64,000 bases of DNA from Schmidtea polychroa (taxonomy: Eukaryota): the NCBI GenBank assembly GCA_044892525.1, contig CM097885.1, positions 20,958,001 through 21,022,000 of the forward strand, read 5' to 3'. The notes under the pieces were generated by a model that was given only the letters and a program-made list of their open reading frames with translations, made no database searches and was not told the origin of the DNA. Positions 33 through 26,047 of the stretch are shown piece after piece. The stretch's first letter is position 1, and the number at the start of each line of letters is the position of its first letter. A program made the translations under genes and the position numbers.

Positions 33-2342
33 ATGAAGGTAGTAAATTGGGCCAGAGAAAAACATAAGTGGACTCACCTGAAGGGCATCCATTTTCCGAT
101 GCTAGACGAGAGACAGGCAGTTGAAGTGTTAATTGGCGCGGATTATTTAACGCTTCAACGAGCACTCAAAGAAATCGATGGTAAGTTGGATGAACCGATT
201 GCCCGTTTAACGCCACTTGGCTGGACATGTGTGGGAAGAACCTCGGTGGGAAGAACTTGGAACCATCAAAGCAATTTCATACGAACGTTCTTCGGTAATG
301 GCGAGGATTTGCAACGACAGATGGAGCGATTTTGGGAAATTGATGATAGCGGCTTAAAGGAAAATATATTTGCAGCGAAAGACCAAGCGATTTATGAGAA
401 AACCAAATCTGAGATGAAGAAAGTAGACGGACATTTCGAGGTAAAAGTGCCATGGAAAGAGTCACCAACAGCTTTGCCCAATAGTGAAAAAATGGCAGAA
501 AGTCGACTGCGAAGTTTGGACAAGAGGCTTGAAAAGGAAGACTTACGAACTGAGTATCAGGATATTTTGAATGGTTACCTGAAAAAAGATTATATAAGTA
601 TTGTAAAAGAGAAAATGATGCCTGGAGATTCGGAATGGATATTACCACACTTTCCCGTGGTTAGAAGAGATAAGGACACCACGAAAGTGCGTATTGTGTT
701 TGATGCGGCAGCCAGGTGTAATGGGGTGGGACTTAATGATATGGTGGAAGTTGGCCCAAAATTACAAAATGAAGTTTTTGATATTTTAATTCGTTTTCGT
801 CGATTTTCCGTAGCTGTTGTTTGTGATATAGCAGAAATGTATCTGCAAATAAGAATGGCTCTTGAAGACAGGAAATATCATCGGTTTTTATGGTCAACTG
901 GGGGGAAAATTATTAAGTATGAGTTTAATCGGTTAGTGTTTGGTCTTAATGCATCTCCATTCCTTGCCCAGCTAGTCGCGCAAGAGAATGCAAAGAAATT
1001 TGAAAAGGACTACCCAAAAGTGACAGAATCTATTTGCAAGTCTACGTATATGGACGACACCATGGACTCTGTTGATTCTGAAGAAGAAGGAATGAGGCTG
1101 AAAGAGGGGCTAGAAACAGTTTGGGGCAATGCCGGAATGCGGCCTAGAAAATGGCTATCCAACTCGGAAAGAATTATGGCGACAATCCCAATTGAAGAAC
1201 GAGCTAAAACACTGAATATTGAAAAGGAAACGACAATGGCCGTCAAGACCCTAGGTTTGAAATGGTACTCGGAAGACGATGAATTTAGTTTTCAAGTAGA
1301 TCTGCCGAATGAGGAATGTTTATCGAAAAGAAAGGTATTGAGCATAGTGGCAAGAATCTTTGATCCATTGGGACTGTTAGGCCCATTCATAATCATAGGG
1401 AAAAAGATTATTCAGAAGTTGTGGTTGTCAGGGCTTGATTGGGACGAAAAGCTACCTCCAAAGTTGAATAAAGAAATACACAAGTGGGTAGAGGACACAA
1501 ATAATCTCGGAGATCTGCGAATTGCGAGATGTTTAAGGACTCAAATGAAAAATGAATGGCAATTACATGTCTTCTCCGATGCGTCAAGCACCGCATATGG
1601 GTCAGCTATATATCTACGGGAAGAAACTATGGTGGGACCTAAAAGTGTGTTAATTGCGTCAAGGGCAAAGGTAGCTCCAGTGCAAATTATAAGTATACCA
1701 AGGTTGGAATTAATGGCCGCGTGTACTGGAGTTAAATTAGCAATACGGGTTTCAGAAGTGCTCGGGAAACCGATGAGTGAGATATGGTTCTGGTCCGATA
1801 GTAAAGACGTAATACATTGGGTTCGAAATTATTCGAGACTATTCAAGCCATTCGCAGCTAATCGAATTGGGTTCATTCAAGAAATGACCAAACCTGGGCA
1901 ACGGCATTATGTTCCAACAAGTGAAAATCCATCGGATTTGATCACAAGAGGATTATCGGCATCGGATTTGATAAACAGCACCATGTGGTGGGAGGGACCG
2001 AAATTTCTACTAGAACCAATGGGAAATTGGCCAGCGACGGAGTTAAACCAATCCAGTGTAACAAAGGAGTTGCGAAAGGGAATAACAATGATGGCGTGTG
2101 TAGAGGGGCAAAGACGAATAGGGAACACGGACTGTTTCAAAGTAGAAACCTTTTCCTCATGGCAGAGATTGATCAGGGTGCGGGCCTGGGTGGAGCGATT
2201 TATTTTGAACACGAGAACGACACAGTCCCAAAGAACCACAGGGCAACTGACAACTGAGGAGCTTAAAAGAATGGAACTCAATGTAATTAAAGGAGAGCAG
2301 GCGAAGTTTTTCTCTGAGGACCTGGCACGACATCAAGAATGA
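33..2342 (+). CDS. pol: BEL/Pao pol: end of protease region, reverse transcriptase, RNase H; broken by stop/frameshift near 2342
   Basis: Motifs ARLTPLGW, KVRIVFDA, DIAEMYLQI, FGLNASPF, YMDD, FDPLG, HVFSDAS, IPRLEL, ENPSDLITRG. Confidence 0.9.
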   Translation: MKVVNWAREKHKWTHLKGIHFPMLDERQAVEVLIGADYLTLQRALKEIDGKLDEPIARLTPLGWTCVGRTSVGRTWNHQSNFIRTFFGNGEDLQRQMERFWEIDDSGLKENIFAAKDQAIYEKTKSEMKKVDGHFEVKVPWKESPTALPNSEKMAESRLRSLDKRLEKEDLRTEYQDILNGYLKKDYISIVKEKMMPGDSEWILPHFPVVRRDKDTTKVRIVFDAAARCNGVGLNDMVEVGPKLQNEVFDILIRFRRFSVAVVCDIAEMYLQIRMALEDRKYHRFLWSTGGKIIKYEFNRLVFGLNASPFLAQLVAQENAKKFEKDYPKVTESICKSTYMDDTMDSVDSEEEGMRLKEGLETVWGNAGMRPRKWLSNSERIMATIPIEERAKTLNIEKETTMAVKTLGLKWYSEDDEFSFQVDLPNEECLSKRKVLSIVARIFDPLGLLGPFIIIGKKIIQKLWLSGLDWDEKLPPKLNKEIHKWVEDTNNLGDLRIARCLRTQMKNEWQLHVFSDASSTAYGSAIYLREETMVGPKSVLIASRAKVAPVQIISIPRLELMAACTGVKLAIRVSEVLGKPMSEIWFWSDSKDVIHWVRNYSRLFKPFAANRIGFIQEMTKPGQRHYVPTSENPSDLITRGLSASDLINSTMWWEGPKFLLEPMGNWPATELNQSSVTKELRKGITMMACVEGQRRIGNTDCFKVETFSSWQRLIRVRAWVERFILNTRTTQSQRTTGQLTTEELKRMELNVIKGEQAKFFSEDLARHQE

Positions 2343-2364
2343 AAGGGTAGATATCAGAAGCCGT

Positions 2365-3660
2365 TTGTTAAAGTTGACACCAGTTTTAGATGAGATGACT
2401 GTGTTACGAAGTAATAGCCGCATAATTCATGCAAAGAATTTACCATGGGAGACAAAATATCCAATAATTCTATCGGACAAGAGTTGGGTCACCAGACTAA
2501 TCATCAAAGATTGCCATGAAAGTTTGAGCCATTATGCAGGAACTCAACATGTCTTAAGTGTGTTGAACGAAAAATATTGGATTTTGAAGGCCAAAGTAAT
2601 GATCAAACAATGTGAGACAGATTGCGGAATGTGTAGAAAAAGAAAAGCTAAAGGAATGAGTCAAATAATGGCACCATTATCGGCGTTCAGGGTTTCAGAA
2701 CCTTTTAGAGCCTTTGTTCACTCGGCAGTAGATTTTGCAGGACCGTTTGAAACTAAAGTAGGCAGAGGAAAGGTGAAAAATAAAAGGTACATTTGCCTAT
2801 TCGTATGTTTAAAGTCACGGGCGGTGCATATTGAAATGGCATATGGGTTGGACACAGACTCATTCATTCGAGCGTTTATGAGGTTTGCAGCGAGGCGGGG
2901 GATGCCAAAATTGATGATCTCAGACAATGGCACAAATTTCATAGGCGCCACTTCTACAGTAAAGAATTTTGTAATCGACAACTATAAAACTCAAAGAGAG
3001 TTGTCGAAGCATCAATGTAGTTGGATCTTCAATCCTCCATCAGCACCTCATTTTGGGGGAGTTTTTGAGTCCATGATCAAATCGGCAAAGCGAGCTATGA
3101 ATACCATACTGACAAGTGCAGATGTGACCGACGAAGAATTGGGAAATGTTTTGACAAGGGCTGAAATGTTGATAAATTCTCGGCCCTTAGTGGTTCAGGC
3201 AGTAGACAGTAAGGAAGACGCTGTGCTAACTCCAAATCATTTATTAATTGCCGGTTGGAAAGGAGAAGCTGTGGAAAATATAGAAGTGAAGAAAATGTCA
3301 TGTACGATGTTTCGGTGGAGACGAATTCAGGAGTTAACCGAGCACTTCTGGCGGCGATGGATGAAAGAATTGGTCCCGTGCTGGCGGCAAAGGGCGAAAT
3401 GGAATAAGATAGAAGATGATGTCAAGACAGGGTCAACACTGTGGGTTTTAGACAAAAGGAATGAGTATGGGAAGTGGCCAATGGGGAGAGTAATCGAAGT
3501 GATACCGGAAGAAGACGGAAAGCTACGCGTGATGAGGATAAAATGTGAAGGAAAGGAGGTATTAAGATGCATATCTAAATTATACTTGATCACAAAAGAA
3601 GGAGAAGTAAATGGGGATGTGAGATTGACACCAAAGTGTCAAGGGGGGGAGGATGTTTAA
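2365..3660 (+). CDS. pol: BEL/Pao integrase (frameshifted continuation of pol)
   Basis: HHCC zinc finger (H..H..CGMC), VDFAGP, SDNGTNF, GGVFE, NSRPL, FWRRWMKE. Confidence 0.9.
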   Translation: MLKLTPVLDEMTVLRSNSRIIHAKNLPWETKYPIILSDKSWVTRLIIKDCHESLSHYAGTQHVLSVLNEKYWILKAKVMIKQCETDCGMCRKRKAKGMSQIMAPLSAFRVSEPFRAFVHSAVDFAGPFETKVGRGKVKNKRYICLFVCLKSRAVHIEMAYGLDTDSFIRAFMRFAARRGMPKLMISDNGTNFIGATSTVKNFVIDNYKTQRELSKHQCSWIFNPPSAPHFGGVFESMIKSAKRAMNTILTSADVTDEELGNVLTRAEMLINSRPLVVQAVDSKEDAVLTPNHLLIAGWKGEAVENIEVKKMSCTMFRWRRIQELTEHFWRRWMKELVPCWRQRAKWNKIEDDVKTGSTLWVLDKRNEYGKWPMGRVIEVIPEEDGKLRVMRIKCEGKEVLRCISKLYLITKEGEVNGDVRLTPKCQGGEDV

Positions 3661-6320: not shown

Positions 6321-7892
6321 GGTATAAATTATCATTTGTATGTTTAAAGTGTGTGCCATCACAAAAAATTGTCATCAAATAATACAAATGAACAAATAAT
6401 TTCATATGATTTATTTATAAAATTATTAGACATTTAATATTTATATAGAATTTCAGATATTTCATTTTGCGAAGGTGAAAAAATGATAAAATAAGATCTA
6501 ATCTTTAAATTACAAATAATTTAAAGTTTTGGCAGAATTTCAAATATTCAACAAGATCCTTTTACCTTTGATGTTGAGAAAAAAACTCGAAAATTGTAAG
6601 TTTTAAGAACTTAATTAAATAAAATAATATTTTGAAAGAATTTCAGAATACGACAAAATCCAAATAATTAATGCCACGGAAAATGGCAAAGATTACTGGA
6701 AATCACCAAAAATTTATGAGGATGTGCGTGTATGTTACCTACATACATACTTTGAAAAATGTCATGAAAATCATTGAAATTGAGTTGACATACTTAAAAA
6801 CTCTAAATAAAATTCGTTACAAAACCTTAAAAGTCGTAAAAATTAAAGACTTTTGAGTTGAGCTACATAAAAATATTAAGCAGGGGGTATGGTGATGTCC
6901 TGGAGGGGGTAGATTCTACTACTTATATTTCTTTATATTTTTGAATTATCTACTATTTCTCTATGTTAGGAAATAAATTGGCAACAATCCAGCCTTCCAG
7001 AATTGGTTTAGTGCCATATAAACTGATGTCATAACAATGAAATGAAAAGTCATTTATTTTTAAATCAACGATAAACAAATAATACGGCAAAGATAATCTA
7101 TTTGATATAAGTCGTATTTGACTTAAATCGTATGAATTGTGCCATTCCTATTATTCCGGCTTAAGATGGCGTGATTGTATTTACCAATAATTTACTTAAT
7201 TCAAGTTTTCATAAAATTCCATATCAAAAATGTAATTTTTTGTTAAAGCATTTTTCGTTTTCAAGTAATACTCAGATTTAATTAATTCCAAACTCTACAA
7301 TGTTATATAAAAGAGGCTCAATTTCATTAAACCTGTTGGTGAACATTTTTTTCATTTTCATCCTTTTACTTCTTTGGAACTGATAATTGGTATTGAAAAC
7401 AATGCAATTTTCTGAATACAAAAATAGAAATATCAAAAAATGCACAACAGAACTAATATCGTGTTTCTATATGAAAACTCCAAACCATTTATCCCACTGA
7501 TACCCTGACAGAAGCTAAATCATACAAACTACGTTTTCCTTTATTAATTATTTTTATCTGACACAGTTTCTTTTGATTACTACTTTTCTAATTTGCGGTT
7601 AAACGTTTTTTACCAAAGAAATTAGGAAATGGAGTTAGGCTTGAAACCCTTTGAGGTTTTGAATGTTGAAATTGTAAGGCTTCCTAAAACATAATAGAGG
7701 TATGGACTTTCTTTACAACTGAATCTAGTTAATTGGTTTTAACATTTATCTTTTATAATAAATTATAATAATTAATTATTTAATATTTAAAATTATTCAT
7801 TATTAATTTATTATTGAAAATGCTTTTATTTTATAGTTATTAATTTCAATATAATTTTTTGGTAACAAAATATGAGTGATTTAGAATATATA

Positions 7893-9016
7893 AGTAGGTA
7901 GATAGTAGCTTACCGCAACAATTAAGGGGGGGGGGTTCTGCTGCAACTTTTTTTGCTGCAACCTTTGATTACGCAATTTTTCAGACTATAGTGAGGGGGT
8001 CTCGATGGTCCTGGGATTTTCAATACAAAAAATTTTTTTCAATACAAAAACGATGGTCATGGGATTTTCAATACAAAAAAATTTTTCAATACAAAAACGA
8101 TGGTCCTGGGATTTTCAATACAAAAAATTTTTTTCTATACAAAAATCCGACTACCACTAAAAAAGCCAAGGATTTTTCAGACTATAGTGGGGGGTCTCGA
8201 TGGTCCTGAGAAATAGGTGGTCTACACTAAAAAACGTGGTAATTTAAGGTCTCAGGATATTTTCAATACAAAAAGCTGGTCTACACTAAAAAAGCATGGT
8301 AATTTAAGGTCTCAGGATATTTTCAATACAAAAAGGCGGTCTACACTAAAAAACGTGGTAAATTTTTCAATTAAAGTAAATAATGGTCCAAATTTTAAAA
8401 TTAAAGTAAATTATGGTTCTAAAAATTGAATTATAGTAAATTATGGCTCAAATTTTGAATTACAGTAATTAATGGTTCTTAAAAATTAAATTATAGTAAA
8501 TTATGGTCAAAATTTTTGAATTACAGTAAATTATGGTCCAAAAAATTAAATTAAAGTAAATTATGGTCCTAAAAATTGAATTAAAGTAAATTATGGTTCT
8601 AAAAAATTAAATTACAGTAAATTATGGTCTAAAAATTAAATTACAGTAAATTATGGTCAAACATTTTAAATTAAAGTAAATAATGGTCCAAATTTTAAAA
8701 TTAAGTAATCAATGGTAAAAAATTTTAAATAAGTAAATTAAAGTAAATTAAAGTAAGATTTTAAAATTTAATTACAAAATAATAGAAGGTGTTTGAGAAT
8801 TGAAATTTTTTAATGAAATTTTTAAGATAATTTTTAATGTAAATTTTTATGAAATATTTTTTTAAGTAATTTTTAATAGAAAATTTTATGAAATATTTTT
8901 CAATGGTAATTTTTAATGGAAATTTTTATGAAATATTTTTTAATGATAATTTTAGATGGAAATTTTTAAGATAATTTCAATGAAATATTTTTCAAAGTCA
9001 AATGAAAATTTAAATG

Positions 9017-9051
<35 letters not shown>

Positions 9052-9131
9052 TATCAACCAAATACATAAAAATTGAACTATACACATAAAACACAAACAA
9101 ATAACAAATGTAAAGATATAAAATTTATTCA
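7893..9131 (+). repeat. Left TIR of Polinton 1, built of internal tandem modules
   Basis: Reverse complement of 25923-27096; contains GATGGTCCTGGGATTTTCAATACAAAAA modules and a 30-bp TTAAAGTAAATTATGG array (about 8370-8720). Confidence 0.92.
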
Positions 9132-9472
9132 TCCAATATTTGCTTGTAATAAGCTCTTCTTAATTCTGCTAGTAAAATATGAACAACTTCTTTCATCTTA
9201 TATTCTTGGCAGCATCTACATCTAAACGGACATGGTAATTTCATCGGATCCATACATACTTCACAATCGTCTATGCATTTAAATCTTGATTCTTGTACAG
9301 ATTCGAAATGTCTTCGTATAAGTTCTTCTATATTGATCCCCGTTAATTGCTTGATTCTATAAGCTAATAATTCCGGAGCACAATATGAAAGTCTGTTCTT
9401 TATATTCGGGAACAATTCTTCCATCTTCGTTAATATAGTCTGGAATATGTAAGCTTGCTTATCGTCATCCAT
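9125..9472 (-). CDS. Polinton hypothetical Cys-rich protein (115 aa)
   Basis: Open ORF with CxxxCxxC...CPxxCxCC cluster; stop codon overlaps AATAAA at the TIR boundary. Confidence 0.65.
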   Translation of the reverse strand: MDDDKQAYIFQTILTKMEELFPNIKNRLSYCAPELLAYRIKQLTGINIEELIRRHFESVQESRFKCIDDCEVCMDPMKLPCPFRCRCCQEYKMKEVVHILLAELRRAYYKQILDE

Positions 9473-9535
9473 TTTTGAATTTTTGTTATTGTAGATATTC
9501 AGTTAATTTAAACACAATTAATTAATTTAATTTAA

Positions 9536-10012
9536 TTAACTTAATAAATATTCCAATATTTCTTCATTTGTTGTGATATTTATAGTTAATGATTTAATGA
9601 ATTTCTGAATTTCTTGAATTTGATTAAAATAATCAAATGTTTTAATCCCTAATATAACAACTTTCCCACTTGAAAAAACATTTACACATAGGGGGTTATA
9701 CTTGAGAATACGTAAAGCTGGAAATATTTCAGGCTCGTAGTAACTATCGGTTTTCCTTGACAATGCATTTAAATCAATGCATGTACCCATATCTAGCGTT
9801 AATGTAATTGATTGGATTTGTAAATCTTGAATCTGATATTTGAGATCGCCTTCCTGTAATGGTTTCTTACATCCCATTATCCTACATTTCCCGCTCTTGA
9901 AGAATAAAATTGGATATTTTCCACTTCTGTCCACGACATGTTGAGGTTTTCCTGATGGGAACTTCATTTCATTTACTACACATCTTCCTCTATAATTAAT
10001 GTTGCTGATCAT
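9536..10012 (-). CDS. TATA-binding-protein (TBP)-like protein encoded by the Polinton
   Basis: Two TBP-like repeats: ISNI...ILFFKSGKCRIMGCK and IQSITLTLDMG..IDL..L...YEPEIFPAL...P..VNVFSSGKVVILGIK; first ATG at 10012. Confidence 0.85.
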   Translation of the reverse strand: MISNINYRGRCVVNEMKFPSGKPQHVVDRSGKYPILFFKSGKCRIMGCKKPLQEGDLKYQIQDLQIQSITLTLDMGTCIDLNALSRKTDSYYEPEIFPALRILKYNPLCVNVFSSGKVVILGIKTFDYFNQIQEIQKFIKSLTINITTNEEILEYLLS

Positions 10013-10062
10013 TCTAATTATTGTAATTATAAACAAATTAAATAAAATAATTTAATTAAAAA

Positions 10063-10686
10063 ATGGAATTAAGAAATGACGCAGTATATCAAATAGTAGG
10101 ACCTAGTGGAAGCGGGAAAACTTTATTTGTATGTAATTTATTACAATCAAACATGTTTAAATCTAAATTTAATAAAATATATTGGCATCGAGGTGCAGAT
10201 GAAGAACATGGATTGACTCAAAACAGTTTCTGTAAATTAAAAATGACAATAATTAAAGGATTTGATAAAAATTGGTCATCTAGATTACGCCAAGGTGATG
10301 TTATTATTATCGATGATCTGTACCAGGAAGCAAATAAAGAAAAAGATTTTAATAATTTATTTACAAAAATCAGTAGACATTGCGGAGTTACAGTTATTTT
10401 CATTACACAAAATCTTTTTCATCAAGGTGGAAGTCATAGAACACGTAATTTAAATGTCCAATATTTAATTTTTTTCAAAAATCCTAGAGATCAAACAATA
10501 ATAGATTTTCTTGCAAGACAAGCCTATCCAAATAATAGAAAATTTTTGATTGATTCATTCCAAGATGCAACAAAAATTCCTCATGGATATTTATTTTTTG
10601 ATTTTACACAACAATGTCCAGATGATATGCGTATTAGAACTGATATTTTTAATATAAACGGTGTTACGATTTATAAACAAAACTAA
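10063..10686 (+). CDS. A32/FtsK-like DNA packaging ATPase
   Basis: Walker A GPSGSGKT, Walker B VIIIDD, SRH and ITQ motifs, PHGYLFFD. Confidence 0.93.
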   Translation: MELRNDAVYQIVGPSGSGKTLFVCNLLQSNMFKSKFNKIYWHRGADEEHGLTQNSFCKLKMTIIKGFDKNWSSRLRQGDVIIIDDLYQEANKEKDFNNLFTKISRHCGVTVIFITQNLFHQGGSHRTRNLNVQYLIFFKNPRDQTIIDFLARQAYPNNRKFLIDSFQDATKIPHGYLFFDFTQQCPDDMRIRTDIFNINGVTIYKQN

Positions 10687-10705
10687 AAACTAAATAAAAT
10701 TAATC

Positions 10706-10858
10706 ATGTCATTTAAAAAAGTAGTTGTTAAAAATCTTCCAAGTGTTTCGAAGAAAATTACCAAGAAAACAAAACGTACAAAGAAAACAAAAAGTGGATC
10801 AAAAAGTACAAAAAGTACAAAAACTAAGAAACAAATCAAGAAGTGGATCAAATTATAA
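10706..10858 (+). CDS. Small Lys-rich protein (50 aa), possible DNA-condensing core protein
   Basis: Manual translation MSFKKVVVKNLPSVSKKITKKTKRTKKTKSGSKSTKSTKTKKQIKKWIKL*; fills the gap between the ATPase and the next gene. Confidence 0.6.
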   Translation: MSFKKVVVKNLPSVSKKITKKTKRTKKTKSGSKSTKSTKTKKQIKKWIKL

Positions 10859-10887
10859 ACAATCCGTCGCGTAAATTAATAATAATA

Positions 10888-11214
10888 ATGAAATTTGAAC
10901 GGAGTTTACCATATTTTAATGCTTTAATAAAGGCACCAAATTCGAAACGAATATCAATTTTACAGTCTTTTCCATCATTTGTTATTGATGATTTACTTGA
11001 AGTTATTATAAATGTTGTCCGCGGTAATGTAAATATAACTAAAGCTAAAAGATTAGTATTGCAAAGACATAAAAGATCACTTTTATCTCTAGTTGATACA
11101 AAAAATCGTCGTCTAATGAGAAAGATAATATATAAACAAAAAGGAGGGTTCTTGGGTGCACTAATTCCTATAGTCTTATCTGCAATTAGTGCAATCTCAT
11201 CATTAAGTTCTTAA
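10888..11214 (+). CDS. Polinton conserved small virion protein with QxGG cleavage site and C-terminal amphipathic helix
   Basis: EVIINVVRGNV...KQKGG/FLGALIPIVLSAISAISSL; ATG at 10888. Confidence 0.7.
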   Translation: MKFERSLPYFNALIKAPNSKRISILQSFPSFVIDDLLEVIINVVRGNVNITKAKRLVLQRHKRSLLSLVDTKNRRLMRKIIYKQKGGFLGALIPIVLSAISAISSLSS

Positions 11215-11283
11215 TGGGTATCAAGAGTTCATTACCAAATAAAAATATTGTAGATTTTAATATTTTGACAACTTGTTGTAATA

Positions 11284-12425
11284 ATGAAGGAAACGTATCA
11301 CAAAACCAACACAAAAGTGGAAAAAATGAAAACAAAAGTGAAAAATGTGAAAACAAAAGTGAAAAAAGTGAAAACAATAGAGAAAAAATTAAAAACCATA
11401 TGGACAAACCCAAAAGATCCAGATGGTTTTGGTGGCGTAGAAAAATTAACAAAACGAGTGAATAATTCAAAGAAAGAAACTCAGAAATGGTTATCTAATC
11501 AATTAGCATATAGTTTAAATAAACCAATGTTGAAACGTTTTCCAATAAGACCATACAAAACAATTGGAAACAATGATGTATGGCAAATGGATTTGATGGA
11601 AATGATACCTTATTCAAAAATTAACAAGGGGTACAAATATATTCTGACTTGTATAGATGTTTTTAATAGATATGCTCGTGCTGTTCCTACAAAAACTAAA
11701 TCTGCAAATGAAATGGCTGATGCGATAAAAGAAATGTTTGCAGATGGTAAACCTATTAATTTACAAACGGATTTAGGTAATTAAATTTAATTAATTAATT
11801 TTTAAATATATGATTTAGGTAAAGAATTTTATAACAGCAAAGTTAAAGAGGTTATCAAAGGAATAAACCACTACTCAGTATTTTCTCAGTTCAAAGCTGC
11901 TCACGTAGAACGATTTAATCGAACTTTAAGAGAACGCTTGAAAAAATATTTTGTATATCAAGGTAATAAAACTTGGATAAATGTTTTGCCAAAAATTATT
12001 TTCAGTTACAATCATTCACCACACAGAGGATTAAAAGGACAAACACCTGCAGATTTTACTAAAAATCAAAGTTAGAAAAAATCAATAAACCAAAATACAA
12101 GGTTGGTGATCATGTAAGAATTAGTAAAATCAATTCTTCACCATTCATCAAAAACTTTGATAATAATTGGAGTGATGAAGTATATCAAATTTTTAAAATC
12201 AATACAAAACAGAATCCTGTCATGTATGTGATAGTTGATCATGAAACCAAACCAATCACTGGTAAATTCTATGAACAAGAACTCCAAGTAATTCCTGCTC
12301 CTACAATATTTAGAATTCAAAAGATTTTAAAAACCAAAAAAGATGGTAAATATAAACAATACTATGTTAAATGGCATGGATATGAAACTCCATCTTGGAT
12401 ATCCGAAAATCAATTGATTAAATAA
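11284..12425 (+). pseudogene. int: Retroviral-like integrase with C-terminal chromodomain; 42-nt intron 11777-11818; frameshift near 12070
   Basis: WQMDL, CIDVF, spliced QTDLG|KEFYN, VERFNRTL, YNHSPHR; continues in another frame as KYKVGDHVRISK...GKFYEQELQ...YYVKWHGY..SWI. Confidence 0.9.
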
Positions 12426-12430
12426 ATATT

Positions 12431-13457
12431 ATGAAAGATTTTTATATTATTTTACCTTCTAATAGTTGTCCTCTTATTTTCCCTGATAATGAAGCTAGTA
12501 AATTTAATGTCGAATTTCAAAAATCCTATTTACTTGGATGGTGAATGGGAAGTAGCTCTCATGGACTTTACCTTTGTGTATAATACTTTTCCTTATTACA
12601 GTAATTCATTGATACAATATGAAAAAGTAAAGATGGATGAAGAAATTAAATATTTTAGAATAAATAATTCAAATCGAACCTTTGAAGTAATAAATCCTAA
12701 AAATACTCCTGAAGTTGACATGTTCATTGAAAGATATGAGAATTTGGTTGTTGTTTGTCCACATGTTCCATTTAAAATAACGTTTCCAGATTTTCAACAT
12801 GCTACTAAATTTGGATTAAAATCAGTATCGGTTATTAGTGATAGTGATCATTTGCGAATTAAATTACCAAAATTTACAGAAGATAAAACAATTGATCAAT
12901 TTGGTATAATTATAAGTGTTGTTGAAAAAACAAAATTTGAACATTATTTCGAAGATGAACTATACATCAATACTTTATCTGAAATACATGGTCAGTTAAT
13001 GACAATTAATCCGTCTCCCTTTAAAGATTTAAAAATACAAAATAATGAATTGGTTAAAATAAGTCTTGCTGATAACATTTCATAAATAACCTTTGATAAA
13101 AATTTAACAAAAACATTGGGATTAAAGAAACAAACATTTACAGAGAAAGAAATTATTGGAACAAAAATTCCAAAATTATTTAATCATCATCAACAAATGT
13201 TTATTTACTCAAATATTATCGAACCATTGACTGTTGGAGATGTAAGAGTTCCGTTATTGAAATCTATTTGGATAAAAAAATATGAACAAGGAGAAATTGT
13301 GCAACTAGAAATGAAGAATCCAATGTATCTACCAATTTCTAATTCTTCTATAAACAACATTGAAATCAATATACGAGATGATAGTGGAAAATTAATAAAA
13401 TTTAGTAGAGATACAAAAACACACTTGACATTACATTTTCGTAAAATAAATGATTAA
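12431..13457 (+). pseudogene. Minor capsid (penton) protein copy 1, disrupted
   Basis: MKDFYIILPSNS, then +1 frameshift near 12520, NPIYLDGEWEVAL, in-frame stop at 13083-13085, IYSNIIEP..VGD...PLL...IEINIRDDSG...LTLHFRK. Confidence 0.85.
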
Positions 13458-14466
13458 AAAAGATTTTTATGTGAATTTACCTTCTAATAGTTGTCCTCAG
13501 ACTCATCCAAATAATGAAGCTGGTAAATTTAATGTCGAATTTCAAAATCCTATTTACTTGGATGGTGAATGGGAAGTAGCTCTCATGGACTTTACCTTTG
13601 TGTATAATTATTTTCCTTTTTACAACAATTCAAATGTCAAATATAGTAAAAGTGTATTACATACAAGTTATGAATACTTTTACTTTAACCAAGAAAAAAA
13701 TGAATATACAATCAGTCACGACTCTCCATTTTATTTAATATATATTGATGGAAATACATTGAACATTAATTGTAAATATTTTCCTTTTAAAGTAGAATTC
13801 GATAGTATTAAAGAAGCGCAAAAATTGGGATTTTCAGAAAAAGAAATAACTTTTAAAAAAACCTTGAACCAAATCACTATTCCTCCAAATAATCGAAAAA
13901 TAAAGTTTGATACAATTCGATTAACTATACAATATTATTACGATGTCGAGTTTACAGATACATTCGAAGAAAATATCATTACAGATCTTTCACAAATAAA
14001 TGATCAACTATCACTCTTTTATCCTCGTCCATTTAAATCTGTTGATATTCAAAAAGGAAAAATCGTTAAAATTGTAATGGATGATGATGTCAGTAAAGTT
14101 CAATTTAGTAAATTTTTAGCCAATAGTTTAGGATTATTAGAAGAAACATATACTGACAAACTTATTATTGGTTTTAAAGAACCTGAAGTATTACAACGCA
14201 ATCAACAATTGATGATCTATACAAATATTATCGAACCAATTATTGTTGGTGATACATTGGTCCCTCTTTTGAAATGTATTTGGGTGGAAAAACATAAAAA
14301 AGATGATTTAGTACAAATAATTGAAAAGAATCCAATGTACTTACCTGTATCGTCTTCATATATAAACAATATAGAAATCAATATACGAGATGATAGTGGA
14401 AAATATATATTTGGAAAAGAAGATAAAACATACTTGACATTACATTTTCGTAAAATAAATGAGTAA
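13450..14466 (+). CDS. Minor capsid (penton) protein copy 2, intact
   Basis: FYVNLPSNS, L.GEWEVAL, IYTNIIEP..VGD..VPLL, P.YLPV, IEINIRDDSG, LHFRK. Confidence 0.88.
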   Translation: MIKKDFYVNLPSNSCPQTHPNNEAGKFNVEFQNPIYLDGEWEVALMDFTFVYNYFPFYNNSNVKYSKSVLHTSYEYFYFNQEKNEYTISHDSPFYLIYIDGNTLNINCKYFPFKVEFDSIKEAQKLGFSEKEITFKKTLNQITIPPNNRKIKFDTIRLTIQYYYDVEFTDTFEENIITDLSQINDQLSLFYPRPFKSVDIQKGKIVKIVMDDDVSKVQFSKFLANSLGLLEETYTDKLIIGFKEPEVLQRNQQLMIYTNIIEPIIVGDTLVPLLKCIWVEKHKKDDLVQIIEKNPMYLPVSSSYINNIEINIRDDSGKYIFGKEDKTYLTLHFRKINE

Positions 14467-14857
14467 TCCTGACATAATACATTTTTATAGTAGTAACCAA
14501 TCGGGTGGTGATTTACCATATTTTGTTGGTAAACAATATGGAACCGGTTGGTTGAAGACAATAGGTAGATTTGCACTCCCAATTCTTAGACGAATAGGAA
14601 ATTTTGGTATGAAAACAGCTAATGACGTAATAAATAACAATGCAAATATCTTGCCTGCTTTAAAATCAAATGCAATTTCTGAAATTAAAGAATCATTACC
14701 AGCTGTGATGCAACATTTACCTGAAGTAATTAATAAAGTATCCGATGTATTTAAAAATGATAAAGAACAAAAAGGCGGAATACTTAAACGTCGAAAAATT
14801 ATGAAGAAACATATAAACAAAAGAATGAAAGGATATGGTACCATCTTTGAAAAATGA
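14459..14857 (+). CDS. Polinton small virion protein, putative membrane-lytic (adenovirus pVI/pX-like; cupiennin-like in adintoviruses)
   Basis: QSGG, QYGTG followed by amphipathic WLKTIGRFALPILRRIG; QKGG and a basic tail; lies between penton and MCP. Confidence 0.7.
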   Translation: MSNPDIIHFYSSNQSGGDLPYFVGKQYGTGWLKTIGRFALPILRRIGNFGMKTANDVINNNANILPALKSNAISEIKESLPAVMQHLPEVINKVSDVFKNDKEQKGGILKRRKIMKKHINKRMKGYGTIFEK

Positions 14858-15875
14858 TTAGTGCTAAATCAGAATTATGTCTTTTTGATAGACCTTCTCC
14901 CCAAGCAGTGATTGAACATGGAGCATTTGAAGATATTTACCCAAGAAATTCAATTACAGATGCTGGTTCTTCTTCGATTCAATTTTACATAAACGGATCG
15001 CAGACTGAATATTTAGATTTGAATGATACTTTGTTATATATTCAATTGAAAGTTGTTAATAATTTTGGTGAGAATTTAGGCGAATCAGAAGTAATTCCAA
15101 ATAATTTCTTCTTCCAAACCCTTTTTAAAGACGTTGAATTAATTTTTAATTCAATCAAAGTTGAAGGATCAAATGATAGATTTGCCCACAAAGCATTAAT
15201 TGAAACACTTATAAATTATGACGGAGATACTAAACGAACATCTTTAGGTGGAATGGGGTATACTAACAAAGATCTTACGAGAAAAACATGGATTGAAAAA
15301 TCAAAATCCTTTTCTTTATGTTCCCCACTTCAATTTGATTTCTTTGATCAACCTAAATATTTACTACCAGGTGTTAGTGTTCAAATTAAATTAACAAGAT
15401 CAAATCCAACACTTAGTTTAACTTGTGCGAAAATTGAACCGAAAATTTTATTATTAGACGCAAAATTAATGGTTAGAAGAGTTCGTGTTGAACCATCGGT
15501 CTTGGCAGGACATCAAATTGGTCTGTCTACCAAAAATGCAATTTATCCTTTAAGAAGCAAAGAAGTTGTTGATTTCTCATTACCTATTGGTTCTTCCTCT
15601 TTTTATAAAGAACAAATATTTGGAGATAGACGATTACCTAATTTTATACTTGTTGCATTTCAATCTAGTAAAAGATTTAGTGGATCGTTTTCAGAATCAT
15701 TTTCTATATTTGATCACTTTAATGTCAAGTCCATAACTTTAAGTAAAGGAAGTGATTATCGCGAAAAATATAGTCAAGATTTTGAGAATGATGATTATAG
15801 TACAAGTTATATGCAATCGATTATTAGAAATATGGGTTATCTAAATAAAAATATGAATTGTGGTATCACCATGTC

Positions 15876-18800
15876 CAGGCCCGGTTTTAGGCATAGGCGA
15901 CGTCGGCAGCAGCCTAGGGCGCCGATTTACAAGCGGGCGCCAAATAGTTCTGCTTTTTTTATCAAGTAAATTAAATATTTTATAAACTTTCTATCTTTAT
16001 ATTGATATATACATATGTATGAATTTGTATATATATATATATATATATATGTATGTACGTAAAACATGTAATTCCATCGTTGTTTTAGTCCGATACCGAT
16101 TACTTATTTCTTTTAAAATTTAAAAAAATACAACGGAAAATCGATTTAAAAAAATATTTTGCAAGTTCAAAAAAGTTAACTGAAAAGCGGTTTTAAAAAA
16201 AATTTAGCATATAGCATGCTCTGAAATTTTTTTAAATTACGCAATAATTTTTAGTTTTATTTTAAAAGAATAAAGTCACATGCAGTAAAGTTTTAAAAGA
16301 CTAAAGTAAATGTTAAAAAAGTTAAAAAATAAATAAACAGAAAGTGAAAAAAAAAATAAAATTTAATTAGTGCAGGGCTCAAATTTTTTTTATTTAAAGT
16401 ATATATAATTTCGGTCGTACTTCCAGTATAATTTTTACATATATACAACACAGTAATTTAATTTATATTGGATTTTTCTACACCTATTATTAAATCTATT
16501 ATATTCTATTAATTTTTACTTGAGGTAGCATAATGGCAGATAGAAAAAAATTATCTGGCGCACAAAATAGAAAACGTAAAGCTGAAAAGAAAAATGAAGA
16601 AAAAAAGCAAGAAGGTGCTTTTCTGAAATATATTTGTCGTCAACAATCACAAGATAAAAATCGAAATGAAATGACTCCGAGAAAACAAGTAGACTGCAAT
16701 TTGGAAGAGCAAATGGATAGGAACTCTACAACTAGAAATGCAGAGGTGCCTATTTTGACTGAGTTTCCACATACGAATGTGGAAGAAACTATAGAAGAAA
16801 CTGAAGTTGAAACAATTGAAGAAACTGTTGAAGAACCTATAGAAGAAATTGTATTAGAAACTATAGAAGACACTGAAGAAATTTTAATTAATGAAACTTT
16901 GGAAATATTAGAAAGCGTAAATTCGAGTCTTGATTATAGTGATCCGGCAACTTGGTTAAATTCACATGACTTACGTTCTGGCCGTTTGAGGCAAATTTTG
17001 GTTGAACACGGACCAGAACAAATTGAAGAATTTGATTTTCCTCAAAATGAGAGCCATAGAAAATTTTCAATGAATTTTTATAGAAGGAGACTTGCAAATG
17101 GAGAAGAAATGCGGCGTCATTGGCTACAGTATTCCAAAACAACTAATTCGGCATTCTGCTTTTGTTGCAAAATTTTTAATAATAACCAGCGTGTAATACA
17201 TCTCTCCGATAAAGGATCAAGCGATTGGAAAAATATGTCTGTAATTTTAGAAAGACATGAGAAAAATAAGGATCATTTAATTAATTTTCAAACTTGAAAG
17301 GAGCTAGAATTGCGTTTAAAAAAGAATAAAACTATTGACCAGGATAATTTGCGTCTCATAAAACAAGAAGAGAGACACTGGCAACAAGTCTTAGAGCGTC
17401 TTATAGGTCTAGTTAAAGTGCTTGCTACGCAAAATATTGCATTTCGCGGAAGCAATGAAAAATTGTATTCTCCTGGAAATGGAAACTTCCTTAGCTTTGT
17501 AGAATATTTGGCCTCTTTTGATCCAATTATGGGTGAGCATCTTCGCAGAATAAAGAACAATGAAACACAAGTTCATTATTTGGGAAAAGATATTCAGAAT
17601 GAGTTAATACAACTTTTATCTAAGAGTATTAAAACAAAAATTTTAAAATCGATTTCCATGGCTAAATATTTTTCAATAATCCTGGATTGCACACCAGACG
17701 TTAGCCATACTGAACAAATGACGTTGATTATTCGTTTTGTCCATACAAATACAGAAAATTGTGATTTAGATCCCATATGCATAAGAGAACATTTTTTGGG
17801 ATTTGTGAAACTAACAGATACAACTGGTGCTGGTATGACCGATGAAATCGTTCAGATGTTAGCAGATATGTCATTACCTATTGAGAACTTGCGTGGCCAA
17901 GGATACGATAATGGTAGCAATATGAAAGGCAAAGAAAATGGCGTGCAACGGCGAATTCTGAATCTAAATCCACGAGCACTATTTGTTCCTTGTTCTGCGC
18001 ATTCTTTGAATCTGGTTGTTAATGACGCTGTAAGCTGTTGTTTAGATGCTACATCATTTTTTATGTTAGTGCAACGAATATATGTCTAATTTGCCGCTTC
18101 AACACGTCGATGGGAAGTTTTAAAACGTCATGCTTCAAACTTGACAGTGAAGCCATTGAGCGATACAAGATGGGAGAGCCGAATCGATTCCCTTAAACCT
18201 CTACGCTATCAGCTAAGTAAAGTTATTGCTGCACTTATTGATATTTTTCAAGATACTTCTCAAACAGGAGTTTCTGGTAATACTTCACGTATAGAAGAAC
18301 AGGGCCTTGCTAAAGCTATTTCGAATTTCGAGTTTGTAGTTTCTGTTATTATCTGGTATGATATTCTTTTCAACATAAATATTACAAGCAAACAACTTCA
18401 ATCTGAGAAAATTAATATTCAAGATGCTATGAAGCTACTAGAAGATACCAAAAAATTTCTATTCAACTCCCGAAATGATGAAGGTTTTGAAAGAATATTG
18501 GTAGATGCGCGAGAACTTGCTGAAGAATCAGAAATTTCCCCAATCTTTAAACAAACTCAGCGTATCAGAAAACAAAAAAAACAGTTCGAATATGAAGCCA
18601 ACGATGAGCCCATTCAGAACCCAAAAGAAAAATTTAAGATCAGCTTTTACTTCGCAGTTTTGGATAGAGCTTTAAAATCTGTTGAGCAAAGATTCACCCA
18701 AATGTCAACGATAAATTCAACATTTGGATTTCTATACAACATACATAATTTGCAATATATTTCGTCAAAGAAAATATTAGAGGATTGTCTTAAACTGGAA

Positions 18801-19340
18801 AATTTTTTACGGCACGATGATTCTAAAGATATTGATGGTACAGATTTATTGAACGAATTGATATTTATAGCTAGACATATTCCAAAAAACTTATTGCCGG
18901 AAGATGTACTTAATTATATTTGTAAAAATAATATAGTGGACAGCGTTCCAAATATATTTGTTGCTTTGCGAATTTTATTAACCCTACCAGTTTCTGTGGC
19001 AAGCGGTGAACGAAGCTTTTCGAAGCTTAAACAGATCAAAACATATATAAGATCTACAATGTCACAAGAACGGCTTGTGGGATTAGCAATATTGTCGATT
19101 GAACACGAAATGGCGCGTGATATAGATACGAAGTTGCTGCTTGAAGATTTCGCTAAACTAAAAGCACGAAAAATTAAATTTTAAATGGTTTTTGTTTTTA
19201 TATATATTTTTGTGTAATAAATAAATGAAGTATAGTTATTTTATTTTCATTTACTTCTTTAATTATTGGGTTTGTTTCTAGACTAGAGGCGCCATTTTTT
19301 TAGTTTGCCTAGGGCGCCAAATACTCTAGCGTCGGGCCTG
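15876..19340 (+). mobile_element. hAT transposon nested in the Polinton MCP gene
   Basis: TIRs CAGGCCCG/CGGGCCTG; perfect 8-bp TSD ACCATGTC (15868-15875, 19341-19348). Confidence 0.95.
16533..19184 (+). pseudogene. hAT transposase (ZMYM1-like), single frame with two nonsense codons (17295, 18087)
   Basis: TTF-type Zn finger (WLQYS..FCFCC), AFRG, DCTPD, GQGYDNG, C.AH.LNL, TRW, ASGERSFSKLK dimerization domain. Confidence 0.92.
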
Positions 19341-19584
19341 ACCATGTCTGATTTTAAGAGCAAGTATCCATTCTTTACATTCGTATTGGCACCAGATTTT
19401 GATCTTCATCAAAGTCAGTTACCACAAAGTGGAAATTTGCGATTAGATATTAAATTCGCATCTTCACTTACTGAAGCTGTTTCTGTAATCGTATATGGAG
19501 TTTTTGAAAAAGAAATTCAAATTACATCTACTCGTACTGTTTTGGTATAATATAAACCAAATATCGAAAATCAATTAATCAAAT

Positions 19585-19963
19585 ATGAAGTAAGAATTAA
19601 TTTAAATTATTTAATTATTATTAATTTAGTTCTATTCAGATACATGTTATCGGAAGAAAATTACTAGGAAAAGAATTTCTAGGTGTTTTCCCATTAGACA
19701 AAATACCTTATTTAGATGTCAACAAAGCAATAATTGTAAATACTCAATCTGCTAATCTGAATGGTGAACATTGGCTTGCAGTATACGTGAAACCAGACAA
19801 AATATATGCATTTGATCCAATGGGATTCTATTATCCACCTATATTAATCAATAAACTACAATCAATGTCAATGCCAATTGAATACAATGGAATACGTTAC
19901 CAAAACCCTATAACAAAAACATGTGGACAACATTGTTTGGCTTGGTTAAAGTCAATGAAATAA
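19585..19963 (+). CDS. Adenain-like cysteine protease, spliced (40-nt intron 19590-19629)
   Basis: ATGAA|gtaaga...tttag|TTCT gives MNSIQIH...FLGVFP.D...IVNT...GEHW.A...FDPMG...YQ...TCGQHC; absent from the ORF track. Confidence 0.9.
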
Positions 19964-21849: not shown

Positions 21850-24800
21850 ATGTATATATTTTTAGGTATACTTTACCCAAATTATTGTTCGTCGAAAGAA
21901 CATAATAATAATTGCCATTCTATAATGGAGAATTATTACTCTAAAAAATATTATAATAAAACTTTTTTTATATGCCCCATATGTAAGACTAGTGACCCTG
22001 TAACATATAGAGTTTTTTATAATAAGCATAAACATCATTTAAATATGTTCAATTCTAAAAAAGATGTTATTTTTAAACGACCTTCAACTATTGAAATAAA
22101 TACTACTAATAAAAAAATTAAATTAAATACATTTGTTGAATCCCAGGTCGGATTAGTTGCTGAATCCAATGATGGATTGCCTTTTGTTGAATCCCAAGTC
22201 GGATTGCCTTTTGTTGAATCCCAGGTCGGATTAGTTGCTGAATCCAATGATGGATTGCCTTTTGTTGAATCCCAGGTCGGATTGCCTTTTGTTGAATCCC
22301 AGGTCGGATTAGTTGCTGAACCCTATGATGAATTTGATAATCTTTCACTCGACTCTTGGAATGTAGGTGAATCCAATGATGAATTGGATAATCTTTCACT
22401 CGACTCTTGGGATGGAACTACTAATGTACAAATAGGAGGTAATGCACCCATAGTACAAAAAGATCTAAGGGGTACACATCAAATTTTAGGTTTAAATACT
22501 AGTAACTTGAATATAAAGGAAATAATATTTCCAGAACAATTAATTATAAAATTACGAGATATTATTAACGAATTAGGCTCCGTCAAAATTCAATTCGGAA
22601 TAACAATCGAATTTGAAAAAGACGGGGAAATAAAGGTTAATAATATTTCGAATTACGCAAAACCTTTAACTGCCTTATTTTTTGACGAAGGCATTAGGGA
22701 ACTAAACGAGAAAATAAGTAATATCACAGAGTTAGGAAGTAGCTGGATCATAAAAAAAATAACAGAAATTCACTTCACCATAACAAAGATAAGTAGGCTA
22801 AGTAGATTAAGTGGTAGGAGTTTCATTGAACTACCTACTTGTCTAAAAAATAAAAAATGCTTAATTAATGTAAAAAACACCGATGATTCATGTTTTTTAT
22901 ATAGCATTTTAGCTATTTTAAAATATGATGAGGTTAGTAGTTATGCTAGAAATAGGACATCCAGTTATAATTTATCTGAGTTAATATATAATCCATTAGA
23001 CTTACCCATGAAATTAAAAGACATTAGAAAATTCGAGGCCAAAAATCCAGGCTTAATAATTAACGTTTTTTCTTATGATAATAACAAACAATTAACAGAT
23101 AATTACGTTTTAAAACACCCACATTTAGACATTATACATCGTTCTAAAGTTTTAAATGGAACAGTAATTAATTTACTATTATTAAATAAAGGGAACAATT
23201 TCCATTACGTTGCTATAAGCAATTTAAATAGGTTACTGAATTGTGATATCAACACTACTTGTCCTACACGCATACAATCATTATGGTGTCATCGATGTTT
23301 GAATGGTTTTAAAAATAGAAACGCACTAGAAAAACATGAAATATTATGCAAACGCAATCAATTAGGAACTACTCTTTATACTTTCCCTCAAAATAAATTC
23401 TTACAGTTTACTGACTGGTCGAAAACAGTAACTCCTCCTTTCGTAGTTTATGCCGATTTTGAGGCTATTTTACCTTGTGATAATGATCATTTTCAGCGAC
23501 ACATGCCAATATCTGCTGGTCTTTTACTAGTAAATAACTTTGACGGATCTAAATCTTATCAGCAGTTCATAGGTTTAGATTGCGTCGAGAGTTTTTTAAG
23601 TGCTATAGAGGATATAGCATTAAATAAGGTTCTTCCTTTTTATTATAAAATGGGTAGGAAACCAATGATTAAATTAACAAAAATTGAGCAACAACAATTC
23701 GTTAATTCAACGGTTTGTTATCTTTGTTTGAAATCTATCGTGGATCCTGTTAGAGATCACGATCATTTTACGGGCAAATACTTGGGTGCAGCTTGTAGCA
23801 CATGTAACGTAAATAGAAAAATAAATAAAATTTTGCCTATCGTATTTCACAACTTGAAGGGATACGATATGCATCATATACTTAAATATGGATTAAATAA
23901 ATTTAAAAATTGGAATTTAGGGTGCATCCCAATAACTACGGAAAAATTTATATCTTTGATTGCTCATTTAGGCAAAATTAGCCTAAGATTCATTGATTCA
24001 TATCAATTTGTCAATGATTCTTTGGCTAAAGCAGTCAAAACTTTGAATTCTTTGCCTTTTACTAATTCTGCTTTTTCTGGCACCATAGTAGGTGAAAAAG
24101 GAATCTTCCCTTATAATTTCGCCACTTCTTTAGATGTTCTACAAACTACGTATGAATTACCACCAATCTGGGAGGGTGTCACTGAGCTTGAGTATGAAAA
24201 AGCTCAGGAGATTTGGGTAGAATCTAATTGCCGAACTTTATTAGATTATATGATGATCTACCTAAAACTTGATTGTTTTCTTTTGGCTGATTTCTTTCAT
24301 CAGTTTAGGTTGAAATCAATTGCTCACAATAGATTAGAGCCTTTGAATTATTTCGGAATTCCAGGCATGTCTTGGTCTTCTGCATTAATGTCCTTAGACC
24401 AACCAATTGAACTCATAACTGAAAACGAAATGTTTAGCTTTTATGAGGGTGGAATAAGAGGCGGTCTTACTTTTGTGAATAAGCATTACGTAAAAACCGA
24501 CGAGAACACCGAGTTACTATATATAGATATTAATAATCTTTATGGCTGGGCTTTAAGTCAATCATTACCTTGTGGCGAATTTTGTTGGGTTCTTGATGGA
24601 TTAGATAAAATAATGGATGAATGTAGGAATTTAAATCTTGAATCTTTGTCTTATGGATACACTCTTGAAGTTGATCTTGTAATTCCTTCTGAGCTTCATG
24701 ATAAGTTGGATGATTTCCCTGTAGCTGCTGAAAAAATGAAACCTGCTGGTTCTAAGGTTGAAAAATTATTATTAACTCATCTTCCAAAATCTAATTATGT

Positions 24801-26010: not shown

Positions 26011-26047
<37 letters not shown>

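Follow-up and report, generated by a model that had tools for sequence, protein, structure and literature searches.

The 64,000-nucleotide stretch of Schmidtea polychroa DNA analysed here (contig CM097885.1, positions 20,958,001 to 21,022,000; hereafter the window) holds a defective copy of a Polinton/Maverick of the adintovirus kind. Within that element, at 9536-10012 on the minus strand, lies a gene for a protein related to the TATA-binding protein (TBP), which we call TBPL (TBP-like). Its open reading frame (ORF) begins with an ATG at 10012, ends with a stop codon at 9536-9538 and is intact over 158 codons, as the original prediction had read it. The DNA around the frame has a GC content of about 25%, in which 158 open codons exceed what chance would provide, and the frame recurs in all 150 of the genome copies scored, 149 of them free of stops.

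A search with the Pfam TBP profile (PF00352) matched TBPL in two stretches (E = 3.5e-16, 59.3 bits against a cut-off of 22.9), and phmmer against the PDB returned 35 distinct sequences, all of them TBPs, with 1mp9 the best (2.3e-13); the phmmer alignment is restricted to residues ~59-146, that is to repeat 2. An AlphaFold2 model built on a 25-sequence alignment of the family gave a high-confidence TBP fold (predicted local distance difference test score, pLDDT, 94.0; predicted template modelling score 0.82). Foldseek comparison of this model with the PDB gave, among the matches listed (to rank 44), TBPs in every row, with E values of 5e-8 to 2.4e-4, template modelling scores (query) of 0.58-0.69 and ~165-179 aligned columns covering the whole TBP core. 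Model and Foldseek matches agree on two tandem repeats in one saddle.

The repeats are unequal. In the model, repeat 2 (about residues 62-157) has the complete strand-helix-strand pattern with helices at 81-87 and 129-157, so that the S1-H1-S2-S3-S4-S5-H2 topology is full, whereas repeat 1 (residues 2-48) is predicted to consist of four strands (2-10, 25-28, 35-38 and 42-48) and no helix. Profile alignment of the TBPL family with 16 two-repeat TBPs using hhalign (probability 99.5%, E = 6e-23) places P23 of TBPL at the first phenylalanine of repeat 1 and F38, F97 and F113 at the remaining three DNA-kinking phenylalanines, and leaves a 13-column gap where helix 2 of repeat 1 belongs. From this placement it follows that three of the four phenylalanines are present and that repeat 1 is shortened. 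The translation contains the strings YYEPEIFPAL, NVFSSGK and FFKSGK, and strand S1 opens the protein directly. The original prediction had described a near-canonical repeat 2 with the YEPE stirrup and both phenylalanine equivalents (F97 and F113), a shortened repeat 1 that keeps FKSGK and has lost its first phenylalanine, the absence of an N-terminal extension, and a TBP-fold protein encoded by the element outside the canonical Polinton gene set. Each of these features is borne out.

Twenty columns of the 25-sequence alignment are invariant (N4, N6, Y7, P23, F38, C43, R44, M46, G47, E95, F97, L100, R101, P107, C109, V110, N111, F113, G116 and G122). The DNA-facing positions N4, N6, Y7, F38, S68, T70, F97, F113 and V119 are invariant or nearly so in the family, as are the stirrup residues E93, P94 and E95. 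The YEPE stirrup contacts TFIIB in cellular TBP, and TFIIA, NC2, Mot1 and TAF1 use surfaces of the repeat-1 helices; we take the corresponding positions of TBPL to be its DNA-contact, TFIIB-contact and regulator-contact positions. TBPL thus shares with cellular and archaeal TBP the PF00352 domain, the two-repeat saddle and a near-canonical repeat 2 with both phenylalanines and the stirrup. It differs in being only 158 residues long without an N-terminal extension, in lacking H1 and H2 of repeat 1, in its invariant proline for the first phenylalanine and in belonging to a mobile element; at several DNA-facing positions its residues depart from those of two-repeat TBPs yet are fixed within the TBPL family. 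A C-terminal tail of the form E(E/D)(I/L)LEYL(L/F) (window 9536-9565; also L121 and P0004) occurs in some subfamilies only and may be a short interaction motif.

The element and its genes

The element spans ~19 kb and is bounded by inverted repeats of ~1.1 kb, the left at 7887-8966 and the right at 26044-27102, both with approximate outer boundaries; segments of the two arms are 73-94% complementary. The left repeat contains internal repeat arrays, and both arms (7926-8966 and 26044-27057) show arrays of offset internal repeats and a run of G near the outer end. The original prediction had called the element bounded by a target-site duplication. The long terminal inverted repeats (TIRs) are there, but no such duplication is visible at either candidate boundary, the termini being approximate and not defined from other copies.

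TBPL and the packaging ATPase gene are divergently arranged around an intergenic region of 50 nt (10013-10062). The ATPase is of the A32/IVa2 type and lies at 10063-10686 on the plus strand (Pfam Pox_A32, PF04665, E = 8e-7). The sequence TATAAACAA stands at 10028-10036 on the plus strand, 35 nt before the ATPase ATG, and the same AT-rich core on the opposite strand (TTTATAAT) stands 13 nt before the TBPL ATG. Directly downstream of TBPL, orf115 (9125-9472, minus strand) encodes a small cysteine-rich protein of no assigned family, with no Pfam or PHROGs match. It follows TBPL in every subfamily checked in the host's own genome (32-33% identity) and was not found in the metagenome loci described below.

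The remaining genes of the element lie on the plus strand. A 50-residue basic, lysine-rich ORF (10706-10858), which may encode a small core protein, stands between the ATPase and a pX-like core protein gene (10888-11214; Pfam Adeno_PX, E = 2e-6); each has TATAAACAA 34 nt upstream (10672-10680 and 10854-10862, respectively). The rve integrase gene follows at 11284-11784 (PF00665, E = 1.2e-8) in a broken frame of 166 residues, compared with 389 in the related locus L039. Just before the integrase ATG (window ~11215-11283; also L121, L123, L069 and L083) there is a short conserved frame that starts with MG.NPSLP, a myristoylation-like start, and ends with CC; CATAAACA precedes it in some loci. 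The virion-module gene o338 (13450-14466) is conserved, has no assigned fold and has a partial paralogous duplicate at 12489-13085; o132 (14459-14857) encodes a small conserved protein. Searches of Pfam and PHROGs gave no family match for either. The N-terminal part of the major capsid protein (MCP) lies at 14854-15969, with TATAAACAA at 14812-14820, 42 nt upstream, and its C-terminal part at 19287-19550. Between the two parts sits a plus-strand hAT transposon (15970-19286; Pfam DUF4371 and Dimer_Tnp_hAT; transposase ORFs 16533-19184), which is foreign to the element proper. It is this split of the capsid gene, together with the broken integrase frame, that makes the window copy defective. The intact MCP ortholog of L039 (408 residues) is predicted to adopt a double jelly-roll fold (model pLDDT 74), and its top Foldseek matches are the MCPs of iridovirus, PBCV-1, Sputnik and mavirus (E = 2.5e-14 to 1e-12). 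An adenain-type protease is encoded in a fragmentary frame at 19625-19963 (Peptidase_C5, PF00770, E = 2.2e-5), and a protein-primed family B DNA polymerase (PolB) at 21850-25929. The segment 23350-25700 of the latter matches DNA_pol_B_2 (PF03175, E = 1.2e-32); with the full-length PolB there was no Pfam polymerase match, no PDB match by phmmer and nothing useful in PHROGs.

The element thus carries the Polinton/Maverick hallmarks of PolB, rve integrase, adenain protease, A32-type ATPase, double jelly-roll MCP and TIRs, together with an adintovirus-like pX core protein. Section 3.2 of Starrett et al. 2021 (PMC8502044) treats a PLA2 gene as a hallmark of Alpha-adintovirus; no match to a PLA2-type gene was found in the window copy. 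Of four runs compared with the window, all of them contigs, one covers 9429-9973 and another has runs of A at the A-rich positions 11316, 13700 and 13805; such contigs cannot show transcription, its starts or its strand.

Elsewhere in the window, a BEL/Pao-type retrotransposon pol lies at 33-3660 (Peptidase_A17, RVT_1, integrase zinc domain and DUF5641), and a second PolB, broken into three frames, at 59444-63205 on the minus strand. Past the window end (78830-83942 in window coordinates; L133 and L134) there is a further copy, in which the genes from MCP to ATPase occupy the minus strand and TBPL (59% identical) the plus strand; the motif discussed below again precedes its MCP and ATPase.

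Conservation and descent of TBPL

The host genome (781 Mb) contains at least 150 copies of TBPL, this being the number scored by protein search out of 4203 first-look candidates, and all are 98-100% identical. Since copies so similar are very young, their intactness alone is weak evidence of function. In other subfamilies of the element in the same genome TBPL is 52-59% identical to that of the window copy and the gene order is conserved, with identities of 82-84% for the ATPase, 72-77% for the integrase and 61-64% for MCP. The syntenic orthologs whose search had been proposed are therefore present, both in these subfamilies and in metagenome contigs.

Among 5.8 billion proteins, 123 matched TBPL at 34-68% identity, mostly with lengths of 130-175 residues (full range 97-275). 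The matches listed come from metagenome or run assemblies only, and the sole informative name among them is an automatic JGI annotation, 'TATA-box binding protein'. An exhaustive search of representatives gave 1026 matches at E <= 0.001 and 115 at E <= 1e-10. A metagenome scan found 176 stretches encoding TBPL relatives, and the best 80 of these 176 were used for the locus analyses. No relative of TBPL or of its ATPase was found among IMG/VR viral contigs.

These relatives often adjoin ATPase, integrase, capsid and PolB genes. Other element genes stand beside TBPL in 35 of the 80 metagenome loci, and in 23 of the 29 that have at least 2 kb on one side. Where both TBPL and the ATPase are present, the ATPase lies downstream on the same strand in 23 of 26 loci, with gaps of 31-1523 nt; the divergent arrangement of the window occurs in two, and in the last the ATPase lies 5.7 kb upstream. 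The linkage persists in a deep clade in which the ATPase is only 27-39% identical. Deep-clade loci carry PLA2-like, KilA-N and C2H2 genes, and in L098 and L082 the PLA2-like genes are close upstream of TBPL. The surroundings of TBPL in L098 (7052-9394 and 11439-11849) and L082 (3994-4395 and 13315-13893) hold KilA-N, PLA2-like, C2H2 zinc-finger and RING genes, and the PolB of L098 has C2H2 fingers at its N-terminus.

To measure selection we computed Nei-Gojobori ratios of nonsynonymous to synonymous substitution (dN/dS) for 73 pairs drawn from 78 distinct near-full ORFs. The 56 pairs with 0.03 < dS < 2.5 gave a median of 0.17 (printed values 0.09-0.45), so the dN/dS test that had been called for points to purifying selection. 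A quick maximum-likelihood tree of 57 rows (own_subC_L123 left out), supported by the Shimodaira-Hasegawa-like approximate likelihood ratio test (SH-aLRT) only, set 31 short TBP-like proteins apart by a branch of SH-aLRT 99. Five host TBP sequences grouped among the full two-repeat TBPs, apart from TBPL, in this tree of long branches, in which the TBPL rows were picked from query matches and the 'euk' and 'arc' labels were assigned by inspection and not from database names. TBPL hence sits on a separate long branch from cellular and archaeal TBP and does not nest within the host paralogs. Two outcomes had been named in advance as telling against the original prediction: the lack of a TBP profile or structural match, and an ORF confined to this copy, nested within host TBP and evolving neutrally. 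Neither came about, given the profile and fold matches, the syntenic orthologs, the separate branch and the low dN/dS. Collectively our data show that TBPL is a TBP-fold protein that is conserved, under selection and specific to the element.

The host's own TBP genes encode ordinary two-repeat proteins, with several paralogs. Two of these, at L116 and L117, are divergent, apparently intronless two-repeat paralogs with frames of 166 and 212 residues, and canonical TBP exons and a TRF2-like gene are also present in the genome. TRF2/TLF and other metazoan TBP paralogs resemble TBPL in being divergent TBP-family factors, theirs acting at specialised promoters, but the host paralogs keep both full repeats and group with the two-repeat TBPs, whereas TBPL does not. 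The host genome also contains at least 13 copies of an intronless TFIIB-like ORF of 301-310 residues with zinc ribbon and cyclin folds (C3:38.2-39.1 Mb and C1:23.85-24.19 Mb; L131 4572-5477, minus strand). Some copies are ~7.9 kb apart, and either a mobile element or an expansion of a host gene could account for them; the host's canonical TFIIB is split over exons.

Among viral proteins, the best fold matches of TBPL in BFVD come from giant viruses (Nucleocytoviricota) and are TBP-like proteins, among them those of the asfarvirus B263R type (E = 3.6e-7 to ~1e-3). These are longer, at 186 to 500+ residues, and share 9-21% identity with TBPL in comparison of predicted structures. Giant-virus TBPs serve the virus's own RNA polymerase, and Polintons encode none.

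A TBP-like gene in polinton-related elements whose PolB is adintovirus-like has been labelled before. Searches of the literature for Polinton, Maverick or adintovirus together with TBP or TATA found only Starrett et al. 2021 (PMC8502044) and the preprint of that work (10.1101/697771), in which 'TBP' is a label in the legend of Fig. 5, on MELD virus maps; the figure legend that follows in the preprint lists TBP among homologs of host proteins. In the parts of that work available to us the label is a legend entry in the section on non-animal MELD viruses, without discussion, and in the text of one supplementary file neither 'TBP' nor 'TATA' occurs; our comparison is by label only and does not establish a common family. 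The novelty of TBPL is accordingly not absolute. TBPL is nonetheless a new architectural variant of virus-encoded TBP, conserved across one lineage of animal Polintons/adintoviruses; we regard it as a core gene there, encoding a minimal TBP in which the saddle is kept.

A shared motif upstream of element genes

An undescribed, element-wide motif, tATAAACAw, stands strand- and position-specifically before nearly all element genes except TBPL. For the ATPase, pX, capsid and further genes it lies upstream of the ATG at a distance of 31-48 nt. The intergenic DNA before the ATPase varies between subfamilies except for TATAAACAA, which remains 34-35 nt before the ATG. Over the 64-kb window, TATAAACAA occurs 9 times against 4.8 expected, a count reached by 5 of 100 shuffles. 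The interval 10028-14820 accounts for eight of the nine, each in gene-strand orientation, against an expectation of ~0.18 (Poisson 2e-11). Three have an ATG 34-35 nt downstream (ATPase, 50-residue ORF and pX) and one lies 42 nt before the MCP ATG. In L039, TATAAACA occurs six times against 1.7 expected, and none of 200 shuffles reached six.

We then surveyed 83 sources (319 kb), made up of the window element, two other loci of the host genome and the 80 metagenome loci. A first-ATG ORF of at least 50 residues begins within 120 nt of 125 of the 162 occurrences of TATAAACA, at a distance of 30-44 nt in 67. The figures for TATAAA not followed by C are 141 of 634 within 120 nt and 28 at 30-44 nt. 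Around 658 ORF starts, ATAAAC counted in 6-nt bins rises to 20, 45 and 60 at -48 to -31, compared with 1-13 elsewhere, and the controls GTTTAT, ATAAAT and ATAAAG are flat. The consensus from 126 distinct sites is T(0.69)-ATAAAC-A(0.75)-A/T.

The motif is distributed unevenly over the genes. At -48 to -26, ATAAAC precedes 25 of 29 ATPase starts, 7 of 10 pX, 10 of 15 o338, 6 of 12 MCP, 1 of 8 o132, 1 of 7 protease, 0 of 20 integrase, 0 of 3 PolB and 1 of 71 TBPL starts; in a control interval at -110 to -88 the respective counts are 0, 0, 4, 0, 7, 0, 3, 0 and 1. Within 110 nt upstream it is found before all 29 ATPase, all 12 MCP and all 8 o132 genes, 13 of 15 o338, 8 of 10 pX, 15 of 20 integrase, 4 of 7 protease and 1 of 3 PolB genes, and before 5 of 71 TBPL genes. 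The upstream regions are largely independent, since 24 of the 25 motif-positive ATPase upstreams differ mutually by more than 15%.

A role of the motif as a poly(A) signal was considered and rejected; neither AATAAA nor ATTAAA peaks ahead of gene starts. Moreover, the motif precedes the ATPase also where TBPL is divergent (window, L121, L123, L043 and L083), an arrangement that leaves no same-strand gene directly upstream and so argues against a signal of that kind. ATAAAC also peaks at ORF ends, but this is artefactual, since the motif itself contains TAA. Literature searches for the motif with forkhead and core promoter found nothing relevant, and those for promoters of animal Polintons found nothing. 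Promoter motifs that virophages and polinton-like viruses of protists have in common with giant viruses are described in the literature.

The upstream regions of TBPL itself have a different character. For the host-type motifs TATA, initiator (Inr) and CCAAT the picture is as follows: 32 of 40 occurrences of TATAWAWR before TBPL fall at -50 to -31 and 37 of 73 Inr-like motifs at -30 to -11. TATA and Inr occur together at a spacing of 26-34 nt before 12 of 71 TBPL starts compared with 1 of 94 other genes, and CCAAT/ATTGG in 15 of 71 TBPL upstreams compared with 6 of 94.

Candidate functions of TBPL

To judge from the placement of these motifs, TBPL probably switches on the other element genes by way of a promoter signal that belongs to the element alone. 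In the model we propose, the host RNA polymerase II (Pol II) machinery would first transcribe TBPL from a host-type promoter (TATA, Inr-like and sometimes CCAAT). TBPL would then bind the variant box tATAAACAw, which stands ~35 nt ahead of the start codon in most element genes, those for the ATPase, core protein and capsid included, and on this box would nucleate a Pol II pre-initiation complex via TFIIB. It may at the same time escape host TBP regulators, as it is without the repeat-1 helices that those regulators use. The canonical repeat 2 would lie on the TATA half of the box and the altered repeat 1 (Pro for Phe, Asn for Val) on the deviant AACA half, if TBP is oriented on DNA as we presume.

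This logic would be that of the TBP mimic of beta- and gamma-herpesviruses (ORF24 of Kaposi's sarcoma-associated herpesvirus), in which a virus-encoded TBP-like factor acts with host Pol II on a non-canonical TATA variant before late structural genes. The mimic, the viral pre-initiation complex and the TATT late promoters are the subject of three papers (PMC7498053, PMC12529657 and PMC4893493). The parallel is one of analogy only, since the herpesvirus proteins (ORF24/BcRF1/UL87) are matched by the TBPL fold in BFVD only at E = 0.013-0.014. They are large proteins with additional domains, TBPL being no more than a truncated TBP core, and their late box is TATT, compared with tATAAACAw in the element. 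We give even chances to the proposal that a viral TBP driven by the host goes on to activate the remaining promoters of the element, much as happens with the late genes of herpesviruses. A stricter version is an autonomous two-step programme in which TBPL alone would read the private tATAAACAw, its altered repeat 1 recognising the non-canonical 3' half and the loss of helices freeing it from host regulators. This we regard as a credible possibility that falls somewhat short of an even chance.

Several observations weigh against a TBPL-driven programme of this kind. Four copies of the motif in the window (11131, 12351, 13349 and 14361) lie within coding sequence, in Y-K-Q or Y-I-N-N codons, with no gene start behind them. 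The integrase motif sits farther upstream, at -52 to -95; PolB could be examined in three loci only, with the low counts given above; and CATAAAC, a less TATA-like form, is frequent in the deep clade. Every locus surveyed was retrieved through TBPL itself, and only a minority of TBPL genes (12-24 of 71) show the host-type promoter features. ATAAACA also fits the forkhead consensus, RYAAAYA, and TATAAA is a usable host TATA box, so that host factors alone could read the motif. Finally, a motif at -30 relative to the start of transcription would leave room for 5' leaders of just a few nucleotides, an unusual arrangement.

The last points but one lead to the strongest alternative, which we consider unlikely though deserving of attention. 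Here host TBP, through the TATAAA core, or a forkhead protein, through ATAAACA, would read the element promoters, and TBPL would be a competitor or decoy that titrates TFIIB or occupies host TATA boxes, damping or re-routing host transcription while the element replicates. The conserved YEPE(I/L)F stirrup, with its presumed TFIIB contacts, is consistent with such a role, and a repeat 1 without helices, presumably the regulator surfaces, would suit a factor that works with just a portion of the machinery. A pure TFIIB decoy, however, needs no conserved DNA-facing sheet, and the nine DNA-facing positions listed above are invariant or nearly so. The fixed distance between motif and ATG is like that of a core promoter and unlike that of an enhancer site. 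The near-absence of the motif at TBPL (1 of 71 at the fixed distance, 5 of 71 within 110 nt) fits the relation of a regulator to its targets, and because tATAAACAw stands before nearly every element gene except TBPL, its distribution favours a factor acting on element promoters over a decoy.

We think it improbable that TBPL is instead an architectural DNA-bending protein for replication or packaging, one that would, for example, flag to the adjacent ATPase where the termini or a packaging signal lie. TBP-fold proteins do bend DNA sharply, and the packaging ATPase is the immediate neighbour of TBPL, whether downstream on the same strand or divergent as in the window type. Yet neither TIR of the window copy contains TATAAACA, it is not obvious what packaging would gain from a conserved stirrup of the TFIIB type, and a motif tied to gene starts is better explained by transcription. 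That TBPL is a neutral passenger, a fragment of host TBP captured in one successful element family, has almost nothing to commend it beyond the youth of the own-genome copies, and is contradicted by a dN/dS of ~0.17 across diverged relatives, by retention beside ATPases of only 27-39% identity, by its separation from the host paralogs in the tree and by a specific architecture with its 20 invariant columns in 25 sequences.

Gene control in Polintons/Mavericks and adintoviruses is essentially obscure, the usual descriptions covering replication and capsid genes only. The TBPL family widens the range of known TBP architectures to a saddle with one helix-free repeat. With a protein of 158 residues and a box of 9 bp (tATAAACAw), it also offers a simple, testable pair for work on how a minimal TBP functions, how promoter specificity arises and how host TBP regulators might be evaded. 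If TBPL does act through the shared motif as we propose, the two would constitute a transcription programme carried by the element itself. Such a programme would account for how silent copies, in their thousands, could be activated jointly, and would amount to a herpesvirus-like early/late switch, worked by a single small protein, in what are regarded as 'transposons'.

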